This document shows positions 1 to 21,584 of a DNA stretch of 21,584 nucleotides, piece after piece. Within the stretch, counting starts at the first letter, position 1. Each line of letters opens with the position of its first letter. Location of the stretch: the IMG/VR virus record IMGVR_UViG_2534682080_000009; one strand, 5' to 3'. Origin of the DNA: a virus (lineage: Duplodnaviria; Heunggongvirae; Uroviricota; Caudoviricetes). The position numbers and the translations under genes are program-made. The notes beneath the pieces are model-generated. The model did no database searches. It worked only from the letters and a program-made list of their open reading frames with translations, and was not told the origin of the DNA.

Positions 1-1283
1 TTACAGACTTCTGGAAGGTTGCGCAGCTCTTACAACACGCGGTTGATCTTCCGCAGCGTCTTCCAGCGCACTTAAATCACGGTCTTTCACCTCTGGCATT
101 TTCAGCGCAGAGATTAAACCAATCACTGAATATGCCATGATCATAATGGCGATCGGATACCAGGATTCCGTCATGGTGCAGAAAATACCCGCCAGGATAG
201 GACCAAAACCGGAAGCGATAAGACCACCAATTTCTTTAGAAATAGCCATCCGGGTAAAGCGGTTTTTACAGCCGAACATTTCTGCCATGGTAATGTTTTC
301 CAGAGCAAATAATCCCAGCACCGCACAGTTATGAATCACAATCAGTGCAACCATAATGGTGCTCGGGGCATAGCTTTTATCTACAATGATAGAAAGCATT
401 GGCCATGCCAGCACAATCGCGGAGGTATTCATAATAATATACGGGATCCGGCGACCAATTTTATCGGATAACCAACCAAGGAACGGAATGGTCATAAAGC
501 CGAGAATCGAACTGATCATCAATGCATCTGTTGGAATTGCTTTGTTAAACAATAACGTCTGCACTAAATAGCCTGCAAGGAAAGTCTGAATTAACCCGGA
601 GTTACCCGCCTGACCAAAACGCAGCCCTGTTGCCAGCCAGAAGGATTTGCTCTGGAACATGCTACCAGCAGGTGCAGGTTTTGCTGTCGGTTGGTTACTG
701 TCGTTAACCTTCTCAAAGACCGGGCTTTCTTTCAGATTCATACGCAACCAGATAGCAAAGACCATCACGACAACACTCGCCAGGAACGGTATACGCCATC
801 CCCACGCCAGCAGTTCCTCTTTACTGAGAATGAAGAACATAAAGGCCCAGATTGCCGTTGCGCTCAAGGTTCCGCAGTTAGTTCCCATAGCCACAAATGA
901 GGAGATAATTCCGCGCTTACCTTTTGGCGCATATTCCGCCAGCATCGTACCGGCACCGGAAATTTCCGCACCTGCACCCAACCCCTGAATAATACGCAAC
1001 GTCACCAGCAAGATGGGTGCAAAAACACCAATCTGTGCATAGGTCGGTAACACACCAATTAAGGTGGTACAGATCCCCATCATGGTGATGGTAATAAAGA
1101 GCACTTTTTACGCCCTATTCTGTCGCCCATTTTGCCGAAAATAAATGCTCCGACAATACGCGCCACATAACCTGCACCGTAGGTTCCCATTGCCAGAATT
1201 AACGCCATTGCCGTTGATGATTCAGGAAAAAATATTTCATGAAACACTAACGCTGCGCCGAGCGAATATAACTGGAAATCCAT
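1..1283 (-). CDS. ydfJ: MFS-family metabolite:H+ symporter (host gene); reading frame broken near 1105-1109, possible pseudogene or sequencing error
   Basis: Two overlapping minus-strand ORFs (1080..1283, 67 aa; 1..1104, 367 aa) together read as one MFS transporter. The N-terminal piece carries the MFS signature GKMGDRIGRKK and the rest is polytopic hydrophobic. The frame switches at an A5 run (minus strand) at 1105-1109. The stop codon is at 1-3. The ydfJ name is inferred from the ydfK-pin-tfa-stf neighbourhood known from the E. coli K-12 Qin region, and is not verified. Confidence 0.7.
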
Positions 1284-1887
1284 AATTCACAGGTGTTTTT
1301 TCCCATCCTGTGGTTTCCTTGGCGTTTTCTAGGTTTTTTCAGATAGTTGCATTTTTTTAAAAAGCATCCTAAGTTCGATCTCAGTGTCTATCTGGGGCCT
1401 ATTTCTGTCCCATATATGCCCCAAAAAAACTCCCCAACAGATAAGTAGTTTTTTCATGGATTTATGCGTAAAATCAAGAACGGCTGGAAATCATTCAATA
1501 CTCACACTATCGAAAAATTTACCAGCCAATCGCAGCACGTTCTTGCATAAGGCGTGTCTGCGGTTTTTCAACTATTCAGATACATCACTCCCATCACATT
1601 CATTCCTCCGCATCAAAGGCATATAGGCTATATCACCTTGATATTTTTCTTTTTCAGATAAAAACTGTTATCTATGTATACTTTTAAACCCAATCCGTGT
1701 AGAGTCTCTGCATAAGATAGTTTGCAGTTGCCGCTTCAGCTTGCGCCATAAACCGCCTGATTTTTGCTGCCACCTGTTAGCATTCCTGTATACCTGAAAC
1801 GACAATGTTTATCTACGAACTTTAAGAACACCCAAGATAAAAATTGTCAACTATATCATATATAACACATTACTAATTCGAGGCTAT

Positions 1888-2001
1888 ATGAACAGCATAC
1901 TGATAATCACATCTCTCCTTATCATATTCAGCATTTTTAGTCATGCCCTAATAAAATTAGGGATTGGCATATCCAATAACCCAGACAAAACCGATGTATA
2001 A
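1888..2001 (+). CDS. candidate small hydrophobic membrane peptide (37 aa), hypothetical
   Basis: ATG at 1888 preceded by GAGG (1880-1883), stop TAA at 1999-2001. Translation [37 protein letters not shown]: one predicted transmembrane helix plus a short polar tail. It is below the 60-aa cutoff of the ORF track. AT-rich context means a chance ORF is not excluded. Confidence 0.25.
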
Positions 2002-2069
2002 GTCAACATATCCTGAATCAGACATACAATATCGCAATGAAAATCAATAATATTTTAAGGAATATCTTC

Positions 2070-2303
2070 ATGAAATCAAAAGACACCCTAAAGTGGTTCC
2101 CTGCGCAGCTTCCTGAAGTAAGAATTATCCTAGGGGATGCTGTAGTGGAAGTAGCAAAACAGGGAAGACCTATCAATACCAGAACATTGCTTGATTACAT
2201 TGAAGGAAACATAAAGAAAAAATCATGGCTGGATAACAAAGAATTATTACAAACAGCGATATCAGTTCTTAAAGACAACCAAAATTTAAATGGTAAAATG
2301 TAA
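2070..2303 (+). CDS. ydfK: YdfK/YnaE-family small prophage protein (cold-shock-associated, function unknown)
   Basis: The ORF 2037..2303 contains MKSKDTLKWFPAQLPEVRIILGDAVVEVAKQGRPINTRTLLDYIEGNIKKKSWLDNKELLQTAISVLKDNQNLNGKM, recognised as the YdfK/YnaE family. The start at 2070 is preferred because AAGGA lies 9 nt upstream, whereas the ATG at 2037 has no Shine-Dalgarno. Confidence 0.8.
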   Translation: MKSKDTLKWFPAQLPEVRIILGDAVVEVAKQGRPINTRTLLDYIEGNIKKKSWLDNKELLQTAISVLKDNQNLNGKM

Positions 2304-2619
2304 TATAATAAACTTACTTTTTTATCATTTTTCCACTTTAACAACATTTTGCTCCACTTTTCCACGACCAAACAACTTGAAATCTGGTTAAAATAACACG
2401 CAACACTATTCTTCTTCCTTGAGTCCGCCCGGAACTCGAAAAACAAACCGAGTTAAAGCCATTTTTCACAAAATCGATTTTGGGTCTCACCAAAATTACG
2501 GGGTTGCATACGCATTCGTTTATTTTCGAACGTGTACATACAAATATGCACAAAAATAATCATAATTATTTTCTGAGATGCATTATGATATGAACACCAA
2601 TTTCGTATAGAGTCTCACT

Positions 2620-3210
2620 ATGTCTCAAATTTTTGCTTACTGTCGGATATCAACGCTGGATCAGACCACCGAAAATCAACGCCGGGAAATCGAAAGTGCA
2701 GGTTTTAAAATCAAACCTCAGCAAATAATCGAAGAACACATTAGCGGCTCAGCAGCAACCAGTGAGCGTCCTGGTTTTAACCGGTTGCTTGCTCGCCTGA
2801 AATGTGGTGATCAATTGATTGTGACAAAACTGGATCGCCTTGGTTGTAATGCAATGGATATCAGGAAAACAGTGGAACAACTGACCGAAACAGGTATCAG
2901 AGTGCATTGCTTAGCATTGGGGGGCATTGACCTGACCAGTCCAACAGGAAAAATGATGATGCAAGTAATTTCAGCAGTCGCTGAATTTGAACGAGACCTT
3001 TTACTTGAACGCACTCATTCCGGGATAGTAAGAGCCCGCGGCGCAGGGAAACGTTTTGGTCGACCACCTGTGTTAAATGAAGAACAGAAACAGGCGGTAT
3101 TCGAACGAATTAAGTCAGGTGTAAGTATAAGTGCCATTGCCCGGGAATTCAAAACCTCGCGGCAAACCATTTTAAGAGCCAAAGCAAAACTTCAGACACC
3201 TGACATATAA
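2620..3210 (+). CDS. pin: Pin/Gin/Hin-family serine site-specific DNA invertase
   Basis: 196-aa ORF with the serine-recombinase N-terminal catalytic region (YCRISTLDQ with the catalytic Ser, [13 protein letters not shown]) and a C-terminal helix-turn-helix ([17 protein letters not shown]). Recognised as close to the e14/Rac/Qin Pin proteins. Confidence 0.9.
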
Positions 3211-3307
3211 AAAATAATCTCGGTGTGAGATGCTTTACGTCTTCCAAGCCCCCTTCCTTGCCGTAAATGGAAAGATACATCTAATTATAGAATTTATATG
3301 TTTTACC

Positions 3308-3883
3308 CTACGGCAGTGCTGGCCATTCAATATCCTGTGCAGTTGACGTATCAACACGGTTCAGCAATACCCGATACTTTTTCCATGCTTCCAGCAACGA
3401 GATTTCTTCCTCCGTTGCAATTTCCAGATCTGCAGCATCCTGAAGCGGCGCAATATGCTCACTGGCTACCTGCATCAGGTTGTTTTTTGTTTCTTCCGCC
3501 TCCCGGATCCGGAACAGTTTTTCTGCTTCCGTATCCTTCACCCAGGCTGTGCCGTTCCACTTCTGAAACTCCCCTTCCGGCGATAACCAGGTAACATTTT
3601 CCGGTAACGGACCGAGTTCAGAAATAAATAACGCGTCGCCGGAAGCCACGTCATAAACCGTTTTACCCCGATGATCTTCAACGAGATGCCACGATGACTC
3701 ATCACTGTTGAAAACAGCCACGAAGCCAGCCGGAATATCTGGCGGTGCAATATCGGTACTGTTTGCTGGCAGACCTGTATGAGGCGGAATATATGCATCA
3801 CCTTCACCAATAAATTCATTAGTTCCGGCCAGCAGATTATAAATTTTTATGGTCCGTGGTTGTTCACTCATTCTGAATGCCAT
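3308..3883 (-). CDS. tfa: tail fibre assembly protein (Tfa chaperone)
   Basis: 191-aa ORF directly downstream of the tail-fibre C-terminus on the same strand. Its ATG overlaps the stf stop as TAATG, with GAGG 8 nt upstream. Recognised as lambdoid Tfa from sequence and position. Confidence 0.85.
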
Positions 3884-4877
3884 TATGCAAGCCTCACAAT
3901 ATAGTTAAATGCGATGTTTTTGACGGTGTTTTCCGCGTTACCAGCAGCGTTAACGGTGATGGTGTGTCCATGTGAACCAATCGCAACGGAGTGCGTATGA
4001 GCACCAATACCGACAGTATGTGCATGTGCGCCTGCGCTTGCAGCAGTGCCGGACAGCGAGTGGGTATGAGCACCATCTGATGATGTCTTCCCTGCATTAC
4101 GAGTCTGGCCACTACCGCTTGTTGTGCTCATAATCCCCGCGCTTAGATTTGAAATCGCGGTATAACCATTAGGGAAAATGCTCGTGTTCGTGCCACCAAA
4201 TGCACCGGAACTCTTGTGTTGGTGCGCACCGGCACTATTTGCGGTCCCGCTAATACTATGGGTATGCGCCCCGGTGTTATTCGTGGATTTGGTTCCGTAA
4301 TCAAACGACGATGTGGTTTTCGTCCCCAAATCCGTACTGGATGCGCTGGCGCTGTGGGTGTGCGATTTAATGCCGTCCTGTTCCTGAGATAATACGGCCC
4401 GACCACTGGCGGGCTTGCCCTTAATCGTCCAGCCACGCATATCAGGGATCACGCCTGACGGATAAGCAACTGCAAGTTTCGGGTATGCAGATTTGTCAAA
4501 AGTCTGCCCCTGCATCAGGGCATAACCAGACGGAACGGTATCTGATGGCCACGGGATTGGTGCACCGACTGGATAAAACTCTGCAGGAGGATGAGCCGAG
4601 GTGTAAAGCTGCGCCCACGGCGACCAGTTTGCGTCGGTCGTATCCCGTCGTGAACGAATAAATGCCGGAGCATGAGCACCGCTTGTACCACTCCAGCCGA
4701 TGAGTAACTCACCTTCGCCAACGGCTGTCATCCCTTTCAGGTGAATGATATTTCCATACGCTGTTGGATATCCGTTGTTATACACCTCGTATAACTCAAG
4801 ACCTGCTGCCCCCTGCGTATTGTCTGTCAGCGCGGTTACCCGACCTTTTGAAGCCAGATTAACTGATGATACTGCTG
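3883..4877 (-). pseudogene. stf: side tail fibre protein Stf, C-terminal portion, separated from its N-terminal portion by IS3
   Basis: ORF 3883..4890 (the last 13 nt lie inside the IS3 end). The protein has Gly/Ser/Thr-rich repeats with GAHTHS/GAHAHT His motifs typical of phage distal tail-fibre tips. Its frame is continuous with the N-terminal part across the IS3 junction (codon phase checked by hand). Confidence 0.8.
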
Positions 4878-4907
4878 TGATCCTACCCACGTAATATGGA
4901 CACAGGC

Positions 4908-5774
4908 CTAAGCGAGGTTCTTGTTTTCAAATTGTTCCGGACTGAGGCCGCCACACCAACTGTGCCGCCGCCACCGATTGTAATCACATTCGATATAATT
5001 AAACACCGTTGCCCGCATTATTTCCCGGCTGATAAAGTGTTCTCCATGGATACATTCCACTTTCAGCGAATGAAAGAAGCTTTCCACGCAGGCATTATCG
5101 TAGCAGCAACCTTTTGCGCTCATACTTCCACGCAGATTATGCCGCTTCAGTTGCGCCTGATAATCTGCTGAACAGTACTGGCCTCCACGGTCCGTGTGAA
5201 CGATAACGTTCCGGGGCCTCTTACGCCGCCACAGCGCCATCTGCAGGGCATCGCAGGCCAGTTGCGCCGTCATGCGTGGCGACATTGACCAGCCAATAAC
5301 GGCACGTGACCACAGGTCAATGACCACTGCCAGATACAGCCAGCCTTCATCTGTACGTAAGTACGTGATGTCTCCTGCCCACTTCTGGTTCGGGCCACTG
5401 GCGTAAAAATCCTGCTCCAACAGATTTTCTGACACAGGCAGGCCGTGTGCGCGGTAGCTGACCGGGCTGAACTTCCGGGAGGCCTTTGCCCTCAGTCCCT
5501 GACGGCGCAGGCTTGCCGCCACGGTTTTTACGTTAAAGGGGTAACCCTGAGCACGCAGTTCATCCGTCAGGCGTGGGGCACCGTAACGCTGTTTTGACCG
5601 GGTAAAAGCCGCGAGGACAACGCTGTCGCAGTGTTGGCGGAACTGCTGACGCGTGCTTATCCTTGTCCGCCGCTGACACCACGTATACCAGCCGCTGCGG
5701 GCCACCCGGAGCACGCGGCACATTGCTTTGATGCTGAACTCAGCCTGATGTTTTTCAATAAAGACATACTTCAT
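4908..5774 (-). CDS. insF: IS3 transposase OrfB (integrase/DDE catalytic part, made as an OrfAB fusion by frameshifting)
   Basis: 288-aa ORF recognised as IS3 OrfB (DDE-type domain, e.g. WAGDITYL...HTDRGGQY). Its start overlaps the orfA stop as ATGA. Confidence 0.9.
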
Positions 5775-6070
5775 TTCAGGCGCTTCGCGAAGTATGTCGC
5801 GGCCTTTTGGAGGATAGCCAGCTCTTCATCCCGTTCTGCCAGCTGGCGTTTGAGACGTGCAATCTCGGTAGACATCTCCAGTTCACGTTCAGAAGACGTC
5901 TGCTGATTTTGCTGTTTACTGCGCCAGTTGTAGAGTTGTGATTCATACAGGCTGAGTTCACGGGCTGCGGCAGTAACACCGATGCGTTCAGCAAGCTTCA
6001 GGGCTTCACTGCGAAATTCAGGCGAATGCTGTTTACGGGGTTTTTTACTGGTTGATACTGTTTTTGTCAT
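5771..6070 (-). CDS. insE: IS3 transposase OrfA (HTH DNA-binding part)
   Basis: Translation [54 protein letters not shown]... recognised as IS3 OrfA. ATG at 6070. Confidence 0.9.
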
Positions 6071-6135
6071 GTGAGTCACCTCTGACTGAGAGTTTACTCA
6101 CTTAGCCGCGTGTCCACTATTGCTGGGTAAGATCA

Positions 6136-8218
6136 CTGTTCCACCTGACGGTAACGCCCCGATCTCTGATGCCGTTGGCTTATTTCTGGAGTTATAGTCC
6201 CTTCGCCAGCCAGGTGAATAATCTGTTCCGTGATTAATATAGGTAAACTGGGCGTTAGTTGTTCCACCACCAGTGGAGGTGGTCGGTGTGGTAATGCGGA
6301 TCGTCATCGCTGACTTTATCCCCATTACTTCAATGACAGCTCCGGCGAGATGAATATTACCGCAGTCAGTATCAGTAATGATTTTATTATTGCCATAAGA
6401 CCAGGAACCCTTGCACATCCAGTATGGATGGTTAAATGCTCCCTGAGAATCCAGCCACTCGATAAACTGTGCAGTCGTCCAGTTTCCTGTTGTTGTGCTT
6501 ACTGACCCACCGAAGGCACGGCAGGCACCAATATTTTTCGTAAAGGTATCTTTGCCAGGGATATCCGCACCGTTCTGATCTTTCTGCAGACGTTTCTCAG
6601 CATTGTCATTGGCTGCTTTTACTGCCTTTGGTGTCGCGGCAAGCGTTTCAGACGTGCTGTTGGTCGCGCTGCTTAGCTGGATTATCCCTTTCTGTGCTGT
6701 CGTTGCATCCTGTGCGGTGTATTTCCCGTTAGCCAGGTCATACGCGGCCTTAACGGCTTTTGGTGTTGCCGCCAGTGACTCGGAAGTGCTGTTAGTCGCA
6801 CTACTGAGCTGTACTATCCCCTTTTTCGTCGTGCTCGCATCCTCAAGCGCCACGGCGGATGCAATATCCTCTGCCCGTTTTGCTGCTGTCTCGGCGCGCG
6901 TTGCTGCGGATTCTGCCGTACTTTTGCTCTGAGCTGCCGCCGTCGCACTGCCAGCAGCCTCTGTCGCCTTCGTGGATGCCGTCGTGGCGCTGCTCTTCGC
7001 TGCTGACGCTTGTCTGGTCGCCTCATCTTTTGAAGCAGACGCCGATGATGCCGATGACGCCGCCGAACTGGCTGACGATGCGGCAGCCGTTTTTGAGGAT
7101 TCTGCGCTGGTTTCCGACGCTTTCGCGTTCGTTTCGGATGTCTTCGCTGCGGAAGCAGACCTCGCTGCTGCGCTGGCCTGTTCAGTGGCTTCGCCAGCCT
7201 TCGTTGTGGCTGTTGAAGCAGACGATGCAGCACTTTCTGCCGATTTTCCGGCGGCGGTGGCACTGGCTGAGGCCTGCCCGGCACTTGTTGACGCGGCACT
7301 GGCAGATAATGCAGCCGCTGTTTTTGAGTCTGCCGCAGCTGAGGCGCTCTGTCCCGCTGCCGTTTCAGAAGACCTGGCGTTCGTCTCGGACGTTTTTGCC
7401 GCCTTCGCAGAATTTGCTGCCGCCGTTGCCGAGGAAGCTGCGCTGCTGGCGCTCGAGGCTGCGTTCGTTTCTGATGATTTTGCCGCCTCTTTTGAAGCCG
7501 ACGCATCCCGGGCTGAGGTGGCAGCTTCTGACGCTTTCGTGGTCGCGGTGGATGCAGAAGTGGCTGCTGATTGTTGTGACGCTGCAGCATTCGTTTCTGA
7601 CGTTTTCGCGGCACTGGCACTGGTAGCTGCCGCGCTTTTTGAGGACTCTGCAGCGGCAGCACTTTTTGATGCTTCAGTGGCCTTTGTTGATGCCGTTCCT
7701 GCGCTGGAAGACGCTGACTGAGCCGACGAAGCGGCCTGTCCGGCTGACGTGCTGGCTGCGCGTGCTGAGCCTGCAGCATCAGTCGCATGGGTTGCCGCCT
7801 CACGGGCAGATGTGCCGGCATCGCCGGCTGACTTCTTCGCGGCTGCCGTGTTCTGTGCCACCGCGGACGCGTTACGCGCCACCTCTTCCACCATCAGTTC
7901 AAAACGGCGCAGAGCCTCCGGACGGGCATCATCCTCCGTCATGGCACCGAGAAAATCATTCAGCGTACCGGGTCGGGAATCTTCATACACGGTGATGGTC
8001 CCGGCATGTGACGGCGGGAATCCTTCCACCAACAGAATAACGCTGTACTGACCGTACTCAACGTCCATGCTGTAACGCCCGGCTTCATCCGGATTTTCTG
8101 AGGCCAGCGTGTTCACCACCACCGCGGTGCTGTTACGTTTTGCTTTCAGCTGGATTGTGCAGTTCTGTACCGGTTTTCCTGTGCCGTCTTTCAGTACACC
8201 TGAAATCTTTACTGCCAT
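6136..8218 (-). pseudogene. stf: side tail fibre protein Stf, N-terminal portion, truncated by the IS3 insertion
   Basis: ORF 6098..8224 reads MAVKISGVLKDGTGKPVQNCTIQLKA..., followed by a long Ala/Ser/Thr-rich low-complexity region and two KGI(V/I)QLSSATNSTSE(S/T)LAATPKAVKAA phage-fibre repeats. The ORF then runs 38 nt into the IS3 end before a stop. The likely start is the ATG at 8216-8218. Confidence 0.8.
6617..6832 (-). repeat. two ~75-bp imperfect direct repeats (period ~132 bp) inside stf, encoding the tail-fibre repeat motif
   Basis: DNA copies at about 6621-6694 and 6750-6828, encoding GI(I/V)QLSSATNSTSE(T/S)LAATPKA. Read directly from the sequence. Confidence 0.5.
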
Positions 8219-8951: not shown

Positions 8952-11900
8952 TCAACGAATACTGATGCCGGAAGCGGCTTTTTTGGTCACAATCACCGTA
9001 CAGTCGGTGATATTGCCTGCCCCCTGATTGCCTTTCTGGAAAATCTTAAACTCCAGAGTGACGCTACCACCACCACTAGGCATATCAATAACTGCACTGT
9101 AACTACCGGGAATGGCCCCTTTAGTTTCTCTGGATGCGATTAATACGCCGTTTTTGCGAACTTCAAAACCATAACCCGTGTATCGCGTGCCTCCTGGGTT
9201 ATTTCCGCTCCCCGGATCGTCATACGCTATACCGTTAAAAATAATGGGCGGAATAATAATCTGGCGGTCAAAGTTATGATCATCGCTGATGGTGACTGTA
9301 ACCGTACCGTTTGGTGTTTCCGTGTTACCCCACGTACCGACTTTTTTCGGGAAGGCTTTTGATACAGCTTTAACGATATCCCCTCTGACCTGGGTCGCCT
9401 CCAGCATGCCCTTAATCGTACAGTTCTGGTTAATCGTGACATTGTTGAGCGTTCCTGAGTTCGCATTCACACTACCACTGATATCCGCATTTTTAGCGGT
9501 CAGCTTTCCGTCTGATGTCAGGGAAAATACCGGAGGACTGCCACCGCTGGTAATGGTGGGGGCCGTCAGGCGTTTCAGGAACACTTCATTCATGAATATC
9601 TGATCGCCCTGACCAACAAACATCGGCTTTTGTGTTGCCATTCGCAGGATTAATCATCGCAATCCTGTCTGCTGCCAGCAGCACCTGACTCTGCATGCCG
9701 TCAGGGGTGTTCTCAATACCGGCACCGATACCCGCAATATAAAGGCGTCCGTCCTGCATCTGCTGCAGCTTCACTGCCCACATGCTGTTCAGGTTATTAT
9801 TTGTATCAACCTGAACCTTCTGTATCTGCTGGATTGCCGCACTCTGGTCTTCCAGTTTCTTATTGACGGTCTGTGTTATTTCATTGCTGACATCCGTTAT
9901 GGTCGTCCTGATTTCAGTCAGGTCAGGCGCAAGCTGACCGTTATCAATCTGCGTCCACAGCTCCTGAGCCAGATGGGTTTTCCCTATCTCGCCTTTGAAA
10001 AAATCCAGATAGCCTGATGCATCATCACTCGGCTGACCGACAGCCTCCACGAATGCCGATTTGCCAACGGTGTTCACACTGCGAACGTAAAAATAATAAT
10101 CATGGCCCGGTTTGATATTGATACTGGCGGCTATCCAGTACAGTGCCGTACCAAGATAACGCGCGCTGGTTTCAACCTGCCTGATATCCGCAATCCGTTT
10201 TTCCGAGAACCAGAACTCAAACTGTACCGTCGGGTCATAAACCGCAAGATGCGGCGTGGCGGTTATCTGAAAATAGCCCGGCGTCAGCTCAATCCGCGAC
10301 GGCGCTGCCGGTGCGGCAATCCGGAACGATACCGACGCCGGATCGCCCTGCTGCCCCCACGCATTTACTGCCCGGACTGTCAGCCTGTAGTTCCCCAGAG
10401 CCAGTTGTGTGAAGCGGTAAGTGGTTTCCGTCGTCCGGGCCGTGCTGACCAGCCGCTCACGGCCGTCATCCGCTGCCACGGTCAGGCGAAGCAGGAAGCT
10501 CACGCCCTTCACCACCTTCGGCGTGTCCCAGCGCGCCAGCACCTGGTATTCCCCGCTGTCTGCGGTGACTTCTGCGGTCAGGTGCTGCACCGCTGGCGGC
10601 GTGACACCATTTACCGTGCCGCTCTGGTCGCCGTCAAAGTGCGCCCCGTTATCCACGATGGCCTCTTTTTCCGGTACATGCTGCACGGCGGTGATGGCAT
10701 ACGTGCCGTCGTCGTTCTCACGGATACTCACGCAGCGGAACAGGCGCTGGCGCAACGTCGACAGCTTCAGCCCCCATACGCTGTATTCAGCAACGCCGTC
10801 AGGAACACGGCTCACTTTCACCTTCACGCCGTCGGTGACGGACTGAACCTCCACGCTGACCGGACTCCCCTGCCCGTCAACCAGGCTTATCAGCGTGGTG
10901 CCGGAAGATGGCAGCGTGATTTCACGGTCGAGCGTCAGCGTCCGGGTCTGGCTGTTTACCGCCAGCACGCGCCCGCCGGTGCGGATACCGGCATAGTCAT
11001 CATCGCAGATTTCAATGACATCGCCCGGTACATGGCGAAGCCCTTCGGCACCCACGCTGAAGTCCACGGTCTGCGTTTCCAGCAGTTCTGTTTTAATCAG
11101 CCACAGCCCGGCGCGGTGTGCCTGCCCCCGGCTGGTACAGCCAAAAGCATCCATCTTCGTGACGTTACGACCGTAACGGGCAATGGCCCGCGTGTCCTCC
11201 ACAAGCTCTGTCGCCGTCTCCCAGCCGTTATTCGGGTCAATCCAGTTCACCTCAACGGCATTATGGCGGTCCTTCAGGGCGCTGAAGCTGTAGCGGAACG
11301 GCGCACCATCATCCGGCATCACCACATTACTGCGGTTATAGGTCCACACCTTATCCGACGGTCGGTCCTGCACGAACGTCAGCGTCTGCCCGTTCCATAC
11401 CGGCATACAGCGCATCGCAGAGCAGAAATCACTGAGCACATCCCACGCCTTGCGCTGTGTGGTCAGGTACGCATTACAGGTGATGCGCGGCTCTGTGCCG
11501 CCAAAACCGTCCGGCACCGACTGATCGCAATGCTGGCCGATGACATACAGCGCCCATTTGTCCACATCCGCCGCACCAAGACGTTTCCCCATGCCGTAGC
11601 GCGGATGGGTCAGCATATCCCACAGACACCAGGCCATGTTGTTGCTGTATGCTGGCTTAAACGTTCCGTCCCAGATACCGCTGTATTGCCGCGTCTGCGG
11701 GTTATAGTTCGACGGCACCTGCAGAATGCGCCCGCGCAGATGATAATTACGGCTCACCTGCTGGCTGCCGAACTGCTCCGAATCCACCTGCACGCCGACC
11801 AGTGCCGTGTTCGGGTAGCACTGTTTCACATCGATGATTTCGGTGTATGACGACCAGAGCGTTTTGTTCTGCAGCTGGTCTGTGGTGCTGTCCGGCGTCA

Positions 11901-12450
11901 TCCTGCGCATCCGTATATTGAACGGGCGCGGCGGCAGGTTACCCACCACCACCGAGGCCAGATACTGCGAGGTGGTTTTGCCCTTAATGGTGATGTCTTT
12001 TTCCGTCACCCAGCCACCATTACGCTGGATCTGAACCAGCAGGCGGACTTCCGACGGATTCCGGTCCCCCTTTGAGGTGGTTTCCACCAGTGCCTGCACG
12101 CCGAAGGTAAAGCGCAGACGGTCGATGTTTGCAGACGTAATGGTGCGGGTGATCGGCGTGTCATATTTCACTTCCGTACCCAGCACCGTCTCGGAGCCGG
12201 AGGATTCAAACCCCTCCGGCGGTGTCTGCTCCTGCTCACCGGCACGGAACACCACCGTGACACCGGAGATGTTGGTATTCCCCTCAGTGTCCAGCACCGG
12301 CGTACTGTTCAGCAGCACGCTTTTTAATCCATCCACCGGACCTTCAACCGGCCCTTCGCTGATGGCATCGATCACACTCAGCAGCTGCGTGGACTTCAGG
12401 TTGTCCTTCGCTTCGCGCGGGGTATGCCCCTTACTGCTGCCTTTACCCAT
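8952..12450 (-). CDS. J: tail tip / host-specificity protein J (central tail fibre); frame broken near 9625-9631, possible pseudogene or sequencing error
   Basis: ORF 9586..12450 (954 aa) starts [34 protein letters not shown]..., recognised as lambda gpJ. It is continued in another frame by ORF 8952..9641 (229 aa). The two overlap by 56 bp, consistent with a single-base indel. Confidence 0.85.
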
Positions 12451-12510
12451 TCCTCACGCTCCATAAATGACAAAACCGCCCGCAGGCGGTTTCACATAAA
12501 ACATTTTGCA

Positions 12511-13182
12511 TCAGCGACCAATCACCACAACCTGACCACCGTCCCCTTCGTCTGCCGTGCTGATCTCCTGAGAAACCACGCGAGACCCCACGCGCATTTC
12601 CCCGTACAGAACAGGCAGAACATTGCCCTGGGCAACCATGTTATCCAGTGAGGAGAAATAGGTGTTCTGCTTACCGTTATCCGTTGTCTGTGTACGGGGA
12701 GTTCTGGCTTTCGGTGCCAGCATCTGCGCCACACCACCGAGCACCATACTGGCACCGAGAGAAAACAGGATGCCGGTCATACCACCGGTCCCAATGGCTG
12801 CCCCCCATGCTGCAAGGGTGGCTCCGGCGGTAAAGAATGATCCGGCAATGGCGGCAGCCCCCAGGACAATCTGGAATACGCCACCTGACTTGGCCCCGGC
12901 GACTCTGGGAACAATATGAATCACAGCGCCATCAGGCAGAGTCTCATGTAACTGCGCCGTTAACCCGGACGTGCTGACGTCCCGCCCGGCAATCCGTACC
13001 TGATACCAGCCGTCGCTCAGTTTCTGACGAAACGCCGGGAGCTGTGTGGCCAGTGCCCGGATGGCTTCAGCCCCCGTTTTCACACGAAGGTCGATGCGGC
13101 GACCAAATCGTTGTAAATCCCCGTAAAGGCAGATGCGCGCCATGCCCGGTGACGCCAGAGGGAGTGTGTGCGTCGCTGCCAT
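12511..13182 (-). CDS. I: tail tip assembly protein I
   Basis: 223-aa ORF MAATHTLPLASPGMARICLYGDLQRFGRR... recognised as lambda gpI. Its 5' end overlaps the 3' end of K by 103 bp. Confidence 0.9.
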   Translation of the reverse strand: MAATHTLPLASPGMARICLYGDLQRFGRRIDLRVKTGAEAIRALATQLPAFRQKLSDGWYQVRIAGRDVSTSGLTAQLHETLPDGAVIHIVPRVAGAKSGGVFQIVLGAAAIAGSFFTAGATLAAWGAAIGTGGMTGILFSLGASMVLGGVAQMLAPKARTPRTQTTDNGKQNTYFSSLDNMVAQGNVLPVLYGEMRVGSRVVSQEISTADEGDGGQVVVIGR

Positions 13183-13824
13183 TTGTCGGTGTACCTCTCT
13201 CGTTTGCTCAGTTGTTCAGGAATATGGTGCAGCAGCTCGCCGTCGCCGCAGTAAATTGCGGCGTGATTCGGCACTGATGAACCAAAACAGCACAGCAGCA
13301 CATCGCCCGGCTGTGCCGCTGACAACGGCACCTGATACAGCCCCGTCGCCTCCAGATTATCCAGATAGAGATTCTGGCCGTTACGCCACCAGTCATCCTC
13401 ACGATAAAAGTCCGGCATCTCAATCCCCGCCAGATGATAAGCATCCCGGAACAGTGTGTAACAGTCCGTCACACCGTGCTCAAAGCGCCGCCCGGTGAGA
13501 TGCGGCACACAGCGGAACTTATGAATCGTCCCCCGGCAGACCAGCCACCACGGCAAAATCACTCTGCACCTGCAGCCGCCGGTCGGCCTCACTCAGCCAG
13601 GGCAGACCACCGGGGTGGCTGTGGACCAGCGCCACAATCTCACCCTGCATTTCTGCCTGCAGCCAGTCTTCCGGCGACATACGGAAATACGCCTCCGGCT
13701 CACCGGAGATATTCACGCAGGGAAAATATCTTTCCCCCTCCGGCGTGCTTACCACGAAGCCGCACGACTCCGCTGGCGCACATCGCCGGGCGTGCGCCAG
13801 AATCGCTGATTCTGTCTGTGTCAT
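13080..13824 (-). CDS. K: tail tip assembly protein K (JAMM/MPN-like plus NlpC/P60-like); frame broken near 13555-13558
   Basis: ORF 13519..13824 (MTQTESAILAHARRC..., with the JAMM-like motif HSHPGGLPWLSEAD) and ORF 13080..13592 (..LPWWLVCRGTIHKF..., Cys-containing NlpC/P60-like part) are in different frames. The break falls at a T run (minus strand GATTTTGCC). Confidence 0.8.
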
Positions 13825-13829
13825 GGGAT

Positions 13830-14527
13830 TTACTGCGAAAGTTTGTTAATGGAAAGGAAGCTGCCAAAGTTGCCGACATTATTGCGAAACTTACAGCCAC
13901 TCAGGCATTTGCTGCATTTATCCTTCGTGATATCGGACGTCGGCTGGTCATATTCATCCGCGACCGCCGGACCGCTATAACCGCACTCATCGCCGCGATA
14001 GGTCCAGGTGCAGGTGTTGGCCAGCATGATACGTCCCGGAAAAACAGCGCCATCCGTTTCCGTCGGCGTGGACAGTACAAAGGAGGCACTCACCGCGCTC
14101 AGTTCGCTGCACTGCTCAATGCGCCAGCGGCTGATCACCTCCTGCTCCGGATCGGCGTAACTGTTTCCGTTGACGAAGTTCACCGCATCCAGAAAACGGG
14201 CGTAAACCTTACGCCGGACCACCGTTCCGCCGACCAGACTCTGCATATCTTCCGCCATCCCGGTGACCATACCGTACAGGTTAGAAACCGTCAGCGTGGG
14301 GCGCGTACTGGTGCCTTTGCCATTCAGTTCAAAACCGCTCCCCTGAATGGGATACGGCTGATACTGTCGCCCCTGCCAGGTGACCGGCTCACCTTTTTCG
14401 TTCTGCTCATTACAGAAAAATAACGTTCTCCACCGACCTCTGTCAGGTCGATTTCCCAGAGCACCACGCTGGCCGACTGCTCCGCACGGGTGCATTCATT
14501 CAGTGTTTCCTGCCGGATATCCTGCAT
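13830..14527 (-). CDS. L: tail tip protein L; frame broken at 14416-14420
   Basis: ORF 14324..14527 starts MQDIRQETLNECTRAEQSASVVLWEIDLTEVGGERYF and ORF 13830..14495 carries the remainder, ending with the Cys cluster KDKCSKCLSGCKF. The frame switches at a T5 run on the minus strand. The ATG overlaps the M stop as ATGA. Confidence 0.85.
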
Positions 14528-14856
14528 CAGTTCACCACCTGTTCAAACTCTGCGCTGAACTCAACACGCAACATACTGACCCGCGACGACCATTTTACGC
14601 AGGTCACCTTTATCTGCCGCCACTCATAAGGCGGCGTCCACAGAAAGGATTTCCAGCCCCCGTGCTCTTCCAGAAACGACTCCAGTACCGTGGCCTCCTC
14701 ACGGGGGACAGAAAGCGTCACGCTGTACGTTTTCAGGTTGGCATTCAGCCCGGCAGGCGCTCGCTGAGAATAGCCATCACCAAAGCGCACCTTTCTTACA
14801 GAAGGGACCGAAGCCACATCCATACCGGGTTTCACTTTCCAGCGGAAGGTCTTCAT
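14527..14856 (-). CDS. M: tail tip protein M
   Basis: 109-aa ORF MKTFRWKVKPGMDVASVPSVRKVRFGDGYSQRAPAGLNANLK... recognised as lambda gpM. Intact. Confidence 0.9.
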   Translation of the reverse strand: MKTFRWKVKPGMDVASVPSVRKVRFGDGYSQRAPAGLNANLKTYSVTLSVPREEATVLESFLEEHGGWKSFLWTPPYEWRQIKVTCVKWSSRVSMLRVEFSAEFEQVVN

Positions 14857-17415
14857 CGTCCACCTCCGGAGAACAGGCCACCATCACGCATCTGTGTCTG
14901 AATTTCATCACGGGCACCCTTGCGGGCCATGTCATACACCGCCTTCAGAGCAGCCGGACCTATCTGCCCGTTCGTGCCGTCGTTGTTAATCACCACATGG
15001 TTATTCTGCTCAAACGTCCCGGACGCCTGCGACCGGCTGTCTGCCATGCTGCCCGGTGTACCGACATAACCGCCGGTGGCATAGCCGCGCATCAGCCGGT
15101 AAAGATTCCCCACGCCAATCCGGCTGGTTGCCTCCTTCGTGAAGACAAATTCACCACGGTGAACAATCCCCGCTGGCTCATATTTGCCGCCGGTTCCCGT
15201 AAATCCTCCGGTTGCAAAATGGAATTTCGCCGCAGCGGCCTGAATGGCTGTACCGCCTGACGCGGATGCGCCGCCACCAACAGCCCCGCCAATGGCGCTG
15301 CCGATACTCCCGACAATCCCCACCATTGCCTGCTTAAGCAGAATTTCTGTCATCATGGACAGCACGGAACGGGTGAAGCTGCGCCAGTTCTGCTCACTGC
15401 CGGTCAGCATCGCCGCCATATTCTGTGCAATACCATCAAAGGTCTGCGTGGCTGCACTTTTTACCTGCGACATACTGTCCGTGGCGCTCTCTTCCCACTC
15501 ACTCCAGCCGGACTTCAGGCCTGCCATCCAGCTCCCGCGAAGCTGGTCTTCAGCCGCCCAGGTCTTTTTCTGCTCTGACATGACGTTATTCAGCGCCAGC
15601 GGATTTATCGCCATACTGTTCCTTCAGGCGCTGTTCCGTGGCTTCCCGTTCTGCCTGCCGGTCAGTCAGCCCCCGGCTTTTCGCATCAATGGCGGCCCGT
15701 TTTGCCCGTTGCTGCTGTGCGAATTTATCCGCCTGCTGCGCCAGCGCGTTCAGGCGCTCCTGATACGTAACCTTGTCGCCAAGTGCAGCCAGCTGGCGTT
15801 TGTACTCCAGCGTCTCATCTTTATGCGCCAGCAGGGATTTCTCCTGTGCAGACAGCTGGCGACGTTGCGCCGCCTCCTCCGGTACCGCGAACTGACTCTC
15901 CGCCTTCCACAAATCCCGGCGCTGCTGGCTGATTTTCTCATTTGCTCCGGCATGCTTCTCCAGCGTCCGGAGTTCTGCCTGAAGCGTCAGCAGGGCAGCA
16001 TGAGCACTGTCTTCCTGACGATCGCCCGCAGACACCTTCACGCCGGACTGTTTCGGCTTTTTCAGCGTCGCTTCATAATCCTTTTTCGCCGCCGCCATCA
16101 GCGTGTTGTAATCCGCCTGCAGGATTTTCCCGTCTTTCAGTGCCTTGTTCAGTTCTTCCTGACGGGCGGTATATTTCTCCAGCGGCGTCTGCAGGCGTTC
16201 ATAAGCCTTCTGCGCCTCTTCGGTATATTTCAGCCGTGACGCTTCGGTATCGCTCTGCTGCTGCGCATTTTTGTCCTGTTGACTCTGCTGCTCAGCCTTC
16301 TTTCGGGCGGCTTCAAGCGCAAGACGGGCCTTTTCACGATCATCCCAGTAACGCGCCCGCGCTTCATCGTTAACAAAATAATCATCCTTGCGCAGATTCC
16401 AGATATCGTCCGCTTTCTTAAACGCGGCCTCTGCCTTAATCAGCATCTCCTGCGCGGTATCAGGACGACCAATATCCAGCACCGCATCCCACATGGATTT
16501 GAATGCCCGTGCTGTCCTGTCTGCCCAGGTTTCCAGCGTGCCCATGTTCTCTTTCAGGCGGCGGGTCTGGTCATCAAACCCTTTCGTTGCGGCCTCGTTC
16601 GCCGCCTGCAATGCCCCGGCTTCATCGCCGGAACGCTGCAACTGAGCAACATACGCAATCTGCTCCGCCGTCACGTTACTGGAACTGGCGTGCCATCGCC
16701 GTCAGCCCGACGTCGGGTCTGTGGTCAGCTTCCCGAAGGCTTCAGCGACCTTGTCCACCTCCACGCCGGATGCAGAGGAGAAACGCGCCACACTCTGGCT
16801 GATGGACGCAATCTGAGCCTCACCGCTTACCCCCGCCTTAACCAGTGCGCTGAGTGACTCGCTGGTCTGGTTAAACGTCAGCCCTGCCGCCTGCCCGGCT
16901 CTGGACAGGACCAGCATACGATCTGCCGTCAGTCCCGCCTGATTGCCGGAAAGGACCAGCGTTTTGTTGAAATCGGACAGGGTTGAGTTGCCCTGATACC
17001 AGGCATACGCCAGCGCTCCGGTCGCCACCGCCAGCGAGGTAGCCCCCACCATCGGCAGGGTGATCGCACCGGCAAGCCCCCGGAACATGGGGATCATCCC
17101 GCCGAAGGAGTCCTTCACCTGACCCCCCTGTTGCAGCAGGATCAGCCACGGACTTTGCCCGCCTGCAAGCTGCGTGGCCACGTCGGTGAACTGTGCAGGC
17201 AGCATACGCATGGCGGCTTTATACTGCCCGACGGAAATCCCCGCTTTCTGTGCAGCCAGCGCCTGTCGGCTCAGCGACTGTTCAACGACTGCCGCTGTTT
17301 TTTTCGCATCAGTTTCCGTACCGGAAAAATGACGCCTGACTCTGGCCATCTGCTCGCCAAATCTGGCCGCATCCAGACTTAAATCAACGACCAGATCGCC
17401 TACCGGTTCAGCCAT
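14853..17415 (-). CDS. H: tail tape measure protein H; disrupted by an internal out-of-frame patch with an in-frame TGA (about 16677-16708) and a further frameshift (about 15601-15609)
   Basis: Three consecutive ORFs (16702..17415, 15586..16674, 14853..15614) together give an 853-codon tape-measure-like protein (MAEPVGDLVVDLSLDAARF... to ...RDGGLFSGGGR) with a coiled-coil Ala/Gln/Glu/Lys-rich centre and Gly-rich C-terminus. The first two ORFs are in the same frame, separated by a 9-codon scrambled stretch. Confidence 0.85.
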
Positions 17416-17842
17416 ACCGGACTCCTCCTGCGATCCCTTCTGATACTGTCATCAGCATTACGTCATCCTCCGTCATGTCCGCCACATCCGGGGAAGCGGG
17501 GATAACTTCATTCCCTTCCGGGCCAAAGCGGACGCCTCCGGCAAGCCCTGCCGCTTTCTGCATCAGCACATCATCTTCAGGCTCTTCGTCAGCCTCACGC
17601 CGGTTCAGCAGACTGAAATCCAGCGGATGCATATCCGGATCGCTGAAAAACAGGCTGAGCACGGTGTACGTCAGCCCGGAAAAGTGCATATCCAGCAGAA
17701 CATCATGAAAATAATGGGTACTGTAAAAGCGGTGCCAGTCGGCATACTCCGTGGATGACATCCCGGCAAGCATGGCACGCCAGTCGGGTCGCCCCATCTC
17801 TCGCGCCAGTTTCAGGGCAAAACTCAGCTCACCATCGAACAC
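17408..17842 (-). CDS. T: tail assembly protein T reading frame (expressed as the G-T fusion by programmed -1 frameshift)
   Basis: 144-codon frame overlapping the 3' end of G, translation ...HRFYSTHYFHDVLLDMHFSGLTYTVL... recognised as lambda gpT. No independent Shine-Dalgarno expected. Confidence 0.8.
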   Translation of the reverse strand: MFDGELSFALKLAREMGRPDWRAMLAGMSSTEYADWHRFYSTHYFHDVLLDMHFSGLTYTVLSLFFSDPDMHPLDFSLLNRREADEEPEDDVLMQKAAGLAGGVRFGPEGNEVIPASPDVADMTEDDVMLMTVSEGIAGGVRYG

Positions 17843-18246
17843 TTTCCCGCAGAAACAGGCTCTGCAGGCCCGGCGTCCTCTGTCTGTTCAGGAGCATCAT
17901 TCACCACAAACTCATACATACCGGACAGCCGGTACACCACGTTTTCAGCATGAGAAATTGCCTCCGTGGGCCAGGTGGTAAGCACTTCCTGCTCAATCTG
18001 TTTAACGGCTTCATTCATGGAAGGCAGCTTTGTCTTCTTCGGATGGTTATGCCACAGGGACATCGCCACCAGAAACGCGCCGGTTCTGATGGCGTCTTCC
18101 ACAGTAAACTTCCGGTTGCTGTCTGACTCCGCCTGTTCTGCCTGCCGTTTCATCAGGGCGAGATGCTCAATACGCTGCAGGGCTGACAGTTCAGAAAGCG
18201 TGACGGTCACACCGTTATGTTCAAATGATTCGGTTTTCAGGAACAT
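17824..18246 (-). CDS. G: tail assembly chaperone G
   Basis: 140-aa ORF MFLKTESFEHNGVTVTLSELSALQRIEHLALMKRQAEQ... ending ..AGKCSMVS, recognised as lambda gpG. Confidence 0.9.
   Translation of the reverse strand: MFLKTESFEHNGVTVTLSELSALQRIEHLALMKRQAEQAESDSNRKFTVEDAIRTGAFLVAMSLWHNHPKKTKLPSMNEAVKQIEQEVLTTWPTEAISHAENVVYRLSGMYEFVVNDAPEQTEDAGPAEPVSAGKCSMVS
17842..17848 (-). other. programmed -1 ribosomal frameshift slippery heptamer GGGAAAG (G to G-T)
   Basis: Minus-strand sequence ...TCT GCG GGA AAG TGT TCG ATG GTG AGC TGA: GGGAAAG sits 6 codons before the G stop and the -1 frame continues into T. Confidence 0.7.
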
Positions 18247-18261
18247 CTCTGACTCCCCGGA

Positions 18262-19004
18262 TTAACTGGCGGTGACGGTGATTTCTGCAACCGCAGCAAA
18301 CTCACCATTACCGGATACAACCGGAATGTTGACCTTGCCTGCAGCAACGCCGTTCACGGTGACGGTCATACCACTGACCGACACGGTGGCTTTTGTTTTA
18401 TCCGCAGACACCGCACGAAAGCTCTTGTCGGTTACGCCCTCCGGCTGGAAGGCCACGGTCAGCGTGGTGCTCTGCCCTTTCACCACCGAGGTGCTGGCAG
18501 GCGTCACGGTCATGCCGGTTGCCGCTGTTACCGTGCTGCGATCTTCTGCCATCGACGGACGTCCCACATTGGTGACTTTCACCGTGCGGGTGATCACTTC
18601 CTTCGCCGTCTACCGCCTTACCGATACTGCTGACCCAGCCACGGAACACATCGACCGTGCCGTTCGGGAAGCGGATTTTATAGGCACGGGTATCGCCTTC
18701 ATTAAACCACGCCAGCAGCGCCTGCTGCCCCTGCTCTCCGGGCATCCACGCCAGCGTGAAGCTGGTATCTCCGGCAGATTTCTGCCCCTGCCCGGTCGCA
18801 GTCCAGTCTGCATCTTCATCATCGAGATAGCTGTCGTCATAGGACTCAGCGGTCAGTTCGCCGGGCGTCAGGTCTTTAACTTTTGCCAGACGCGACCAGT
18901 CAACGTCTGAAAGCGGATTTCGCATAAGGGTCACCGCTCCCCTTATAAACCCACAGGGTGGTCCCGGCACCTTTCACCGGCATTGTAGGATTTGGTACAG
19001 GCAT
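18262..19004 (-). CDS. V: major tail tube protein V; frame broken twice (about 18918-18920 and 18604-18612)
   Basis: ATG at 19004 gives [28 protein letters not shown] then leaves frame. ORF 18398..18970 carries ..[29 protein letters not shown]...VSSIGKAV in a second frame. ORF 18262..18597 carries [20 protein letters not shown]...AEITVTAS (Ig-like C-terminal domain) in the third frame. Confidence 0.85.
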
Positions 19005-20798: not shown

Positions 20799-21584
20799 TT
20801 ACGCCAGTTGTACGGACACGAACTCATCAGGGTCAGCCAGCAGCATCAGCGGTGCTGACTGAATCATGGTGAACTCACGCGCCGGATCGCCGGTGGTCAC
20901 CCAGTTTTTCGGGTAACGGGCAGAGGCGTTAATGCCTTCGCGCTGTGCGTCCGCATCCTGAATGCAGCCATAGGTGCGCAGACCGCGTGCCTGAGTGTTC
21001 CCCAGCACCATCGTGTTGTCCGGCAGGAAGTTCTTTTTGACGCCGTTTTCCACGTACTGTCCGGAATACACGACGATGGCCACATCGCCATACATCCCCT
21101 TATAGGACACCGCTTTGCCCAGGTCTTTCACCGCTGTCTCCAGCTCGGAATGAGAGCCACGACGGGTATCCAGCTTCTCCTTGACGGCTTTGAAGGAACG
21201 GAACAGCGCCCAGCCTTTCGGATCGAACACGATGATATTCACCACACCGCTGGCGTTCAGCGCGTAGGCTTCGATATCGTCGGTCGGGTCATACGTGGAC
21301 TTGTCACGCTTGCTCCACTCCGTGCCGCCGGACTGCGTGATGTTATTCTCCTCACTGCGGCCCATATCCACCTCAACCGGATCGAAGGCTTCACCGGTCA
21401 TGGTGTATTTGCCCTTAAGCACGGCAGAAACTGCCTGCATCTCTTCGACCTGAGCAATGGCCAGCTCTTCGTCACGCATGTTCTGCATGATGATGCGACG
21501 GCGGCGGTAAGCCGGGTCCGCCAGATTCTGCGGATCTTCATCCGGCAGGCGACGCAGGGTCATCTGCGGATTCACTTCATGCTT
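20799..21584 (-). CDS. E: major capsid protein E, C-terminal ~261 codons (5' end lies beyond the window)
   Basis: The frame is open to the window edge, translation ..KHEVNPQMTLRRLPDEDPQNLADPAYRRRRIIMQNMRDEELA... ending ..DEFVSVQLA, recognised as lambda gpE. The ORF-track start at 21575 is an internal GTG. Confidence 0.9.
   Translation of the reverse strand, partial: KHEVNPQMTLRRLPDEDPQNLADPAYRRRRIIMQNMRDEELAIAQVEEMQAVSAVLKGKYTMTGEAFDPVEVDMGRSEENNITQSGGTEWSKRDKSTYDPTDDIEAYALNASGVVNIIVFDPKGWALFRSFKAVKEKLDTRRGSHSELETAVKDLGKAVSYKGMYGDVAIVVYSGQYVENGVKKNFLPDNTMVLGNTQARGLRTYGCIQDADAQREGINASARYPKNWVTTGDPAREFTMIQSAPLMLLADPDEFVSVQLA

Follow-up and report, generated by a model that had tools for sequence, protein, structure and literature searches.

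Clustered frame lesions in the tail genes of a lambda-like prophage at the Qin locus of Escherichia coli G58-1 are probably errors of a draft assembly

Introduction

The long form of the E. coli Qin prophage includes the late (tail) operon of phage lambda, and the locus described here has the same gene order, the same gene overlaps and the same G/T slip site. As deposited, however, it departs from that operon in having one-base indels in five genes and an IS3 element in stf. The K-12 cryptic prophages (Qin, Rac, e14 and DLP12) offer a second comparison, since the locus is that of K-12 Qin and an insertion sequence interrupts the tail fibre gene. Known prophage decay proceeds mainly by large deletions and IS insertions, with lesions shared within lineages. 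Unlike the decay of the K-12 cryptic prophages, the present locus has eight private 1-bp indels in a background otherwise identical to that of intact relatives.

The third comparison is with artefacts of 454 and unpolished long-read assembly, in which one-base indels of this kind are found, mostly as changes of run length and private to one assembly. A series of adjacent tail genes flagged as 'frameshifted' is likewise seen in CFSAN029787, at the record origin, and in GCA_045571795.1. The changes studied here are unlike the usual artefacts of 454 or unpolished drafts in falling within one 10-kb block, in lying mostly in short runs or in none, and in being accompanied by seven substitutions. 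For 454 Titanium, insertions are more frequent than deletions and deletions more frequent than mismatches, and the error rate at a single position can exceed 50% (PMC3116506).

An earlier, sequence-only reading of this DNA took the lesions as the decay of a tail module no longer under selection, and offered assembly error as an alternative for part of them. We have compared the locus with its closest relatives and searched for each lesion in other genomes; the outcome favours the alternative, and probably for most or all of the lesions rather than merely some.

Results

Source and identity of the locus

The window, the whole stretch of 21,584 nt that was analysed (IMG/VR record IMGVR_UViG_2534682080_000009), matches AFDX01000016.1 from the 2011 draft of E. 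coli G58-1 (GCA_000225165.2) with 100% identity and lies at the end of that contig. The contig terminates 1 nt past window position 21584, within gene E, and this end is 2.6 kb from the first lesion, in V. Window positions convert to those of the contig by adding 98421, which puts V-J at 107373-117425. The tail module has the order V-G-T-H-M-L-K-I-J-lom-stf-tfa, with a one-to-one correspondence between each gene and those of annotated relatives. Across the whole 10.2 kb query, DNA identity to lambda-type phages is 96–98%, and identity to Qin-locus prophages in other E. coli is 99.9%. The chromosomal neighbours of the prophage are tfaQ, pinQ, ydfK and a split ydfJ remnant, which place it at the Qin locus. 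The window is thus a lambda-like prophage at Qin, and the label 'cryptic prophage' given to it earlier fits a locus with ydfJ, pinQ and tfaQ, although the label is independent of the frameshifts.

Eight one-base indels between V and J

Indels were called by aligning the reverse-complemented window to intact copies from strains 88-3493, XJW9B263 and F41 (L001, L006 and L007 in our set). Against these relatives there are exactly eight one-base indels from V to J (Table 1), two in V, three in H and one each in L, K and J, which is the tally of broken genes that had been read from the sequence; the interval named in that reading, 8952–19004, runs precisely from the stop of J to the start of V. Six of the eight are +1 changes. 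Six lengthen or shorten a run of 2–6 bases, and the remaining two are not in a run. There are 40 runs of at least 5 bases in V-J, and only one of the eight indels falls in one of them. Lesions 3 and 4 in H form a -1/+1 pair about 30 nt apart, with lesion 4 downstream.

Table 1. Features of the window discussed in the text. Positions are those of the window; runs are given on the coding strand; residues read refers to translation of each gene from its native start.
Feature	Position	Strand	Description
V, tail tube gene	18262..19004	-	743 nt (741 nt in relatives); two +1 insertions; 34/246 residues read
Lesion 1 (V)	18918..18920	-	+A, AA to AAA
Lesion 2 (V)	18611	-	+A between T and G, outside any homopolymer
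G and T, tail assembly chaperones	17408..18246	-	both intact; slip site GGGAAAG at 17842-17848
H, tape measure gene	14853..17415	-	three indels giving ORFs of 237, 362 and 253 aa; 237/853 residues read
Lesion 3 (H)	16706..16708	-	-G, GGGG to GGG; TGA stop immediately
Lesion 4 (H)	16679	-	+G between A and T, outside runs
Lesion 5 (H)	15604..15606	-	+A, AA to AAA
M	14527..14856	-	intact; carries A87V substitution (14597)
L, tail tip gene	13830..14527	-	one deletion; 67/232 residues read
Lesion 6 (L)	14416..14420	-	-T, T6 to T5; sole lesion in a run of at least 5 bases
K, tail tip gene	13080..13824	-	one insertion; 101/247 residues read
Lesion 7 (K)	13555..13558	-	+T, TTT to TTTT
I	12511..13083	-	intact
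J, tip attachment gene	8952..12450	-	truncated; 954/1,165 residues read
Lesion 8 (J)	9628..9631	-	+A, AAA to AAAA
IS3 in stf	4878..6135	-	1,258 bp; 3-bp CAG target duplication
Ninth indel, ydfJ remnant	1105..1109	-	A6 to A5; sole difference from F41 in the 11 kb downstream of IS3

Read from their native starts, FI, FII, Z, U, G, T, M, I and lom are full length, and tfa and pin are open, with lengths equal to those of the annotated tfaQ (576 nt) and pinQ (591 nt) of relatives. These genes had all been listed as intact, as had E, which runs off the end of the window and of the contig and can be seen only in part. A pattern in which large tail genes are broken while small ones are spared had also been proposed. 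Since V, H, L, K and J occupy 82% of V-J, the chance that all eight indels fall in them is p = 0.20, and we dropped gene size as a signal.

The IS3 element reported in stf was found together with its terminal inverted repeats (TGATC...GATCA) and its target duplication. It contains the orfA/orfB transposase, as ORFs with HTH_Tnp_1 and rve domains, and shares 99.9% identity with the IS3 annotated in XJW9B263. We considered this insertion as a shared lineage marker and rejected it as such: the IS3 of XJW9B263 is inserted 94 bp from this one and in reverse orientation, which makes them two independent insertions. Laboratory lambda also has a defective stf, and for that reason the interruption tells little about tail function.

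The lesions in other genomes

All tail genes are annotated as intact in 88-3493, CFS3246, XJW9B263 and F41, and the 14 best matches to the tail region carry no lesion, as their scores are identical. In 5,426 complete E. coli genomes, the exact 61-mers of lesions 1, 2, 7 and 8 returned no record, with the corresponding sites matched at 1,759, 4,112, 7,493 and 5,404 places respectively; neither lesion 3 nor lesion 4 was shared by any record (site matched at 4,269 places), and lesion 5 had no full-length exact match (4,864 places). Lesion 6 was found in one record, CFSAN029787, among 7,166 places at which its site was matched. Seven of the eight exact alleles, all single-base indels, are thus missing from this set. 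The TTTT change in K also turned up in a single Logan contig of 1.1 kb, which belongs to a phage with only 94% identity.

At the protein level, the truncated products of J (954 aa) and H (237, 362 and 253 aa) were found in a single contig, that of G58-1, among about 15 billion proteins, and the J product corresponds to EGX10823.1 of G58-1 only. A search of Logan and other sources for a second assembly carrying these four products, or the ORF across the IS3-stf junction, found none. Two Logan entries were taken up as possible copies from the same strain, a K fragment in SRR6982927 and an M protein in SRR5487895, and were rejected as belonging to other phages, 94% and 97% identical respectively.

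The L allele with five thymines has a wider distribution. Besides CFSAN029787 it occurs in DEC10F, in a JGI metagenome contig, in an IMG/VR contig (L016) and in GCA_045571795.1. In CFSAN029787 the allele lies at the origin of the record, in a stretch with frameshift flags on G, H, M, L and K, and the JGI contig and GCA_045571795.1 also have several frameshifted genes in the region. In DEC10F, presumably another 454-era IGS draft, L is the only broken tail gene in view. Damage in IMG/VR relatives was scored by in-frame stops, with alignment gaps dropped (divergent copies contain compensated gap pairs); on this measure the window, with five of its genes broken, ranks first for damage among about 140 loci.

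Substitutions and the flanks

V-J (10,053 nt) also differs from its relatives by seven substitutions, all of them nonsynonymous, including V I214V, H D20G and L512P, M A87V and J Q421R. Read from the codon changes, four of the seven are A:T to G:C transitions, an excess of which resembles the spectrum of replication errors. Five of the seven alleles are absent from IMG/VR, where the V reference allele, used as a control, gave at least 120 matches. M A87V and J Q421R occur naturally in other lambdoid phages, and a part of the differences may therefore be real. The protein collection contained no repaired, intact protein with V I214V or with H D20G and/or L512P, such as a resequenced G58-1 with unbroken genes would have supplied; this null would carry no information if the substitutions are errors too.

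The flanks present a different picture. Compared with F41 and XJW9B263, the 10,997 nt downstream of IS3 have no substitution and one indel (the ninth in Table 1), the stf fragment beyond IS3 has no difference at all, and the 2.6 kb of head genes is identical to that of the relatives, giving no substitutions and one indel in 13.6 kb. The concentration of differences in V-J relative to these flanks is significant (Fisher p = 2.6e-5). The mutation spectrum of mismatch-repair-deficient E. coli comprises 5,324 indels to 30,061 substitutions (PMC8510543), and the 8 indels to 7 substitutions of V-J depart from it with p = 6e-4. Such a ratio is improbable even for a mismatch-repair-deficient mutator. 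Under neutral accumulation, substitutions should greatly outnumber indels and neighbouring unselected DNA should be similarly loaded; V-J and its flanks show neither.

Discussion

Taken together, these comparisons make it very probable that the eight frame lesions, and perhaps most of the seven missense changes as well, are errors in the consensus of a poor-quality part of the G58-1 draft. V, H, L, K and J are then most likely intact in the strain itself, as they are in its near-identical relatives. The affected stretch would be the final ~12.6 kb of AFDX01000016.1, where pyrosequencing reads may have supplied chiefly one-base insertions and deletions and a Celera assembly over thin or ambiguous read support, of which the nearby contig end in E is a hint, may have kept these read errors in the consensus. 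One possible source of ambiguity would be another lambdoid prophage in the genome with the same module, although this idea of a collapsed repeat is weakened by the closest complete relatives, F41 and K99S, each of which has one copy of the tail region. The papers found that mention G58-1 use its accession or cite it as a direct submission, and none gives the sequencing methods. AFDU, AFDV, AFDW, AFDY, AFDZ and AFEA, from the IGS project, are Celera 6.0 assemblies of 454 Titanium data with 3-kb paired ends (PMC3491183). As these accessions flank AFDX in the same project, we infer the same platform for G58-1.

Some features of the data sit awkwardly with an artefact. The local error rate would have to rise about 10-fold in V-J. 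Consensus errors from 454 reads are expected mainly in long homopolymers, and most of the lesions are in runs of 0–4 bases. Consensus substitutions are uncommon with this platform, yet V-J has seven.

A mixed origin, in which true slippage at hot spots produced the two long-run changes (T6 to T5 in L and A6 to A5 in ydfJ) and the remaining lesions are artefacts, is a reading to which we give a modest share of belief while thinking it unlikely. It draws on the recurrence of the L allele in five other, independent assemblies, listed above, but three of these themselves have several frameshifted genes in the region. With these three, and with DEC10F presumably of the 454 era, the recurrence of the T5 allele is equally well suited to a recurrent sequencing error at the T6 run.

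It is much harder to accept that the 15 private changes are real and came in an abrupt event, and we consider this very improbable. V-J could have been swapped by recombination with a mutated donor copy, or it could have undergone a local burst of frameshifts and missense changes, for example through error-prone synthesis or break repair, with the adjacent prophage and chromosome left unchanged. The sharp restriction of the differences to V-J would be explained at once, M A87V and J Q421R could have come from other lambdoid phages, a clear recombination patch is present next door in stf, and the substitutions are mostly A:T to G:C transitions. However, the other five substitution alleles and seven of the indel alleles were unseen in any other genome or phage searched, and a donor would itself have to show this implausible 8:7 ratio. 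In E. coli, the known kinds of error-prone repair yield mainly -1 deletions in runs. The indels of V-J, six of them +1 and two of them outside runs, are unlike these.

Gradual decay, the main reading offered from the sequence, in which the tail genes of a cryptic Qin prophage in G58-1 ceased to be selected and accumulated true frameshifts, fares worst of these and strikes us as scarcely credible. Qin is indeed a known site of cryptic prophages, stf is truly interrupted by an IS3 with a target duplication, the break of the contig within E is compatible with a further insertion there, and seven nonsynonymous substitutions out of seven are what would be expected without purifying selection. Decay had been predicted to leave lesions shared by close relatives, whereas the nearest relatives are intact and seven of the eight alleles are missing from the complete genomes. 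The ratio of indels to substitutions is far above E. coli spectra, and 13.6 kb of flanks, which include an unselected fragment of stf, have no substitution against 15 changes in V-J. Once V was broken, later hits must have been neutral, and the flanks show too little elapsed time for them to accumulate. Nor can relaxed selection speed up mutation in a single 10-kb block and leave unselected neighbours as they were; here the stf fragment beyond IS3 has no difference and the ydfJ remnant only its one A6 to A5 change. Selection in favour of tail inactivation can be dismissed by reasoning, as hits after the first knockout gain nothing.

In conclusion, the damage to five tail genes is most likely not a real biological feature of this prophage, and V, H, L, K and J have probably been misannotated as fragments in the G58-1 entry (EGX10823 to EGX10831). 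Read literally, the deposited sequence would record a prophage with five tail pseudogenes and would feed claims of module-specific decay. Such use is unsafe, as the lesions are peculiar to a single old draft and do not behave as real decay is expected to. Where serial 1-bp frameshifts appear in adjacent phage genes of 454-era or unpolished assemblies, comparison with near-identical relatives should come first.

Results

The minus strand of the window carries a lambda-like late operon (E, FI, FII, Z, U, V, G/T, H, M, L, K, I, J, lom, stf and tfa), in which gene E is incomplete, being cut by the window end, while FI, FII, Z, U, G, T, M, I and lom are full length and the G/T slip site is retained. 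Beyond the operon lie pin, ydfK and a ydfJ remnant, which identify the locus as the Qin prophage of E. coli. The tail gene block from V to J (8952–19004) is 96–98% identical to lambda-type phages and 99.9% identical to Qin-locus prophages of complete E. coli genomes, in which all tail genes are annotated as intact. The FI annotation in strain CFS3246 (L002, 8416–8742) is 72 nt shorter than in strain 88-3493 (L001, 8344–8742) and G58-1, and the alignment of the window with L002 falls into two overlapping pieces at FI; a 72-bp length difference may underlie this.

Alignment with 88-3493, XJW9B263 and F41, three strains mutually identical over the aligned stretch, showed that exactly eight one-base indels separate the window from them between V and J.

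One-base indels in the tail genes of the window, relative to the three intact strains
Gene	Window position	Change (coding strand)
V	18918-18920	AA to AAA
V	18611	+A, outside any run
H	16706-16708	GGGG to GGG
H	16679	+G, outside any run
H	15604-15606	AA to AAA
L	14416-14420	T6 to T5
K	13555-13558	T3 to T4
J	9628-9631	A3 to A4

Read from their native starts, the genes run for 34 (V), 237 (H), 67 (L), 101 (K) and 954 (J) residues before a stop. The −1/+1 pair in H (16679–16708), spaced by about 30 nt, would return the gene to its frame were it not for a TGA that follows immediately after the first indel. The alignment and a gene-by-gene reading confirm exactly which genes the sequence-only reading had described as broken and, leaving aside the cut gene E, which as intact. 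Its pattern of damage confined to the large genes is uninformative, since V, H, L, K and J make up 82% of the V–J block (p = 0.20). With five genes interrupted by in-frame stops, the window ranks first among ~140 related loci; the second most damaged, GCA_045571795.1, also has breaks in portal, E and Z.

The truncated products of J (J954) and H (H237, H362 and H253, numbered by residues) occur in one contig only among ~15 billion proteins, under the protein names EGX10823 to EGX10831 of E. coli G58-1, a porcine commensal of phylogroup A whose genome was deposited as a direct submission. The window matches the end of AFDX01000016.1 (GCA_000225165.2) at 100% identity; this contig terminates 1 nt past window position 21584, within the major capsid gene E. 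The break, 2.6 kb from the first lesion, suggests that coverage failed there or that a repeat or an inserted IS is present.

Further sequence of the G58-1 contig was obtained via the open reading frame at the IS3–stf junction. Over the 10,997 nt downstream of IS3 (the C-terminal part of stf, tfa, pin, ydfK, the ydfJ remnant, ydfI, ydfZ, rspR, ydfG and dcp), G58-1 and F41 differ by no substitution and a single indel, and the head genes are identical over 2.6 kb. The 10,053 nt from V to J hold eight indels and seven substitutions, so that 15 of the 16 differences fall in this block (p = 2.6e-5). Some of the flanking DNA, namely intergenic sequence, the part of stf beyond IS3 and the ydfJ remnant, is certainly free of selection, and the flanks have hardly changed. 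From zero substitutions in 13.6 kb, we estimate that the divergence time of the flanks permits fewer than ~2 mutations per 10 kb. The sole flank indel, A6 to A5 in the ydfJ remnant (1105–1109), is either a miscall of the kind typical of homopolymers or a genuine slip.

Probes of 61 or 91 nt, each with one indel at its centre, were compared with 5,426 complete E. coli genomes. There were 1,759 to 7,493 matching places per site, and the exact alleles of seven of the eight indels were found in no record. The T5 allele of L was present in one, CFSAN029787, at the record origin. The same T6 run is read as T5 in DEC10F, a JGI metagenome contig, an IMG/VR contig and GCA_045571795.1, which points to a hot spot of slippage or else to a sequencing error that recurs. 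At least two of these unrelated T5 assemblies (loci L004, L010, L011, L016 and L144) have many other frameshifts nearby. In the CFSAN029787 complete genome (NZ_CP011416.1, 1–7217), frameshift flags are attached to all of G, H, M, L and K, right at the record origin; the site resembles the end of a long-read assembly that was circularised without polishing.

All seven substitutions in V–J are nonsynonymous. Two, M A87V and J Q421R, are natural alleles; V I214V, H D20G, H L512P, J S850T and J F1025I had no match in IMG/VR, where the reference V allele has at least 120, and the protein collection held no intact V or H protein with V I214V, H D20G or H L512P. Mutation spectra of E. coli look very different from this mixture of eight indels and seven substitutions. 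Mismatch-repair-deficient lines accumulated 5,324 small indels against 30,061 substitutions, and their indels cluster in mononucleotide runs (PMC8510543); at least eight indels in 15 events would have a probability of 6e-4 under that spectrum, and 3e-5 with a 10% indel share. Only one of the eight indels lies inside a run of five or more bases, though V–J has 40 such runs, and two are insertions without any run.

The stf gene is interrupted by a 1,258-bp IS3 (4878–6135) with a CAG target duplication. XJW9B263 also has an IS3 in stf (L006, 27536–28799); it lies 94 bp from the G58-1 site in the opposite orientation, so the two insertions are independent, suggesting that this tail fibre gene is a hot spot for IS3. 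Annotation places an IS3 here in five more strains (EC23, 45E, Ec73552, 6409 and EM03-18-08). In the N-terminal part of stf, 14 substitutions relative to F41 are clustered in 230 bp (7229–7459), and the G58-1 version is 100% identical to that of many other E. coli, such as ATCC 11775. The cluster is a mosaic patch of the ordinary kind left by recombination, although it may instead stem from reads of a paralogous stf. An allele common to many genomes is what real recombination leaves; in V–J, by contrast, five of the seven substitution alleles were found nowhere searched.

Discussion

The lesions very probably arose as consensus errors where a draft of the pyrosequencing era is locally of poor quality. 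The accessions that flank AFDX (AFDU, AFDV and AFDW before; AFDY, AFDZ and AFEA after) belong to one IGS project, with 3-kb paired-end 454 Titanium reads and Celera 6.0 assembly (PMC3491183), and from these neighbours we infer the same route for G58-1. Errors in 454 Titanium reads are most often insertions, less often deletions and least often mismatches, and the error rate varies between positions and can rise above 50% at some of them (PMC3116506). Indels in short runs or outside runs, together with seven substitutions, are not typical of a well-covered 454 consensus, so an artefact would presuppose a mixture of reads or very sparse coverage. A further lambdoid prophage with its own copy of V–J could reasonably have caused such local loss of quality through ambiguous read placement, and would fit the contig break in E, although in F41 and K99S, the nearest relatives with complete genomes, the tail region is present only once.

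A real but abrupt event, whether a mutated block brought in from elsewhere or error-prone synthesis in a burst, retains a small probability. Decay of the tail module under relaxed selection, the main proposal of the sequence-only reading, is not supported: lesions fixed and shared by relatives were predicted, whereas the relatives are intact and seven of the eight indel alleles are absent from the complete genomes searched; selection eliminates mutations and is not their source, so relaxing it cannot raise their local rate, and nothing is gained from further hits after the first tail knockout. Assembly artefact, which that reading had offered as its alternative, is favoured for most or all of the lesions. 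The tail-gene lesions are not a new biological feature of this prophage.
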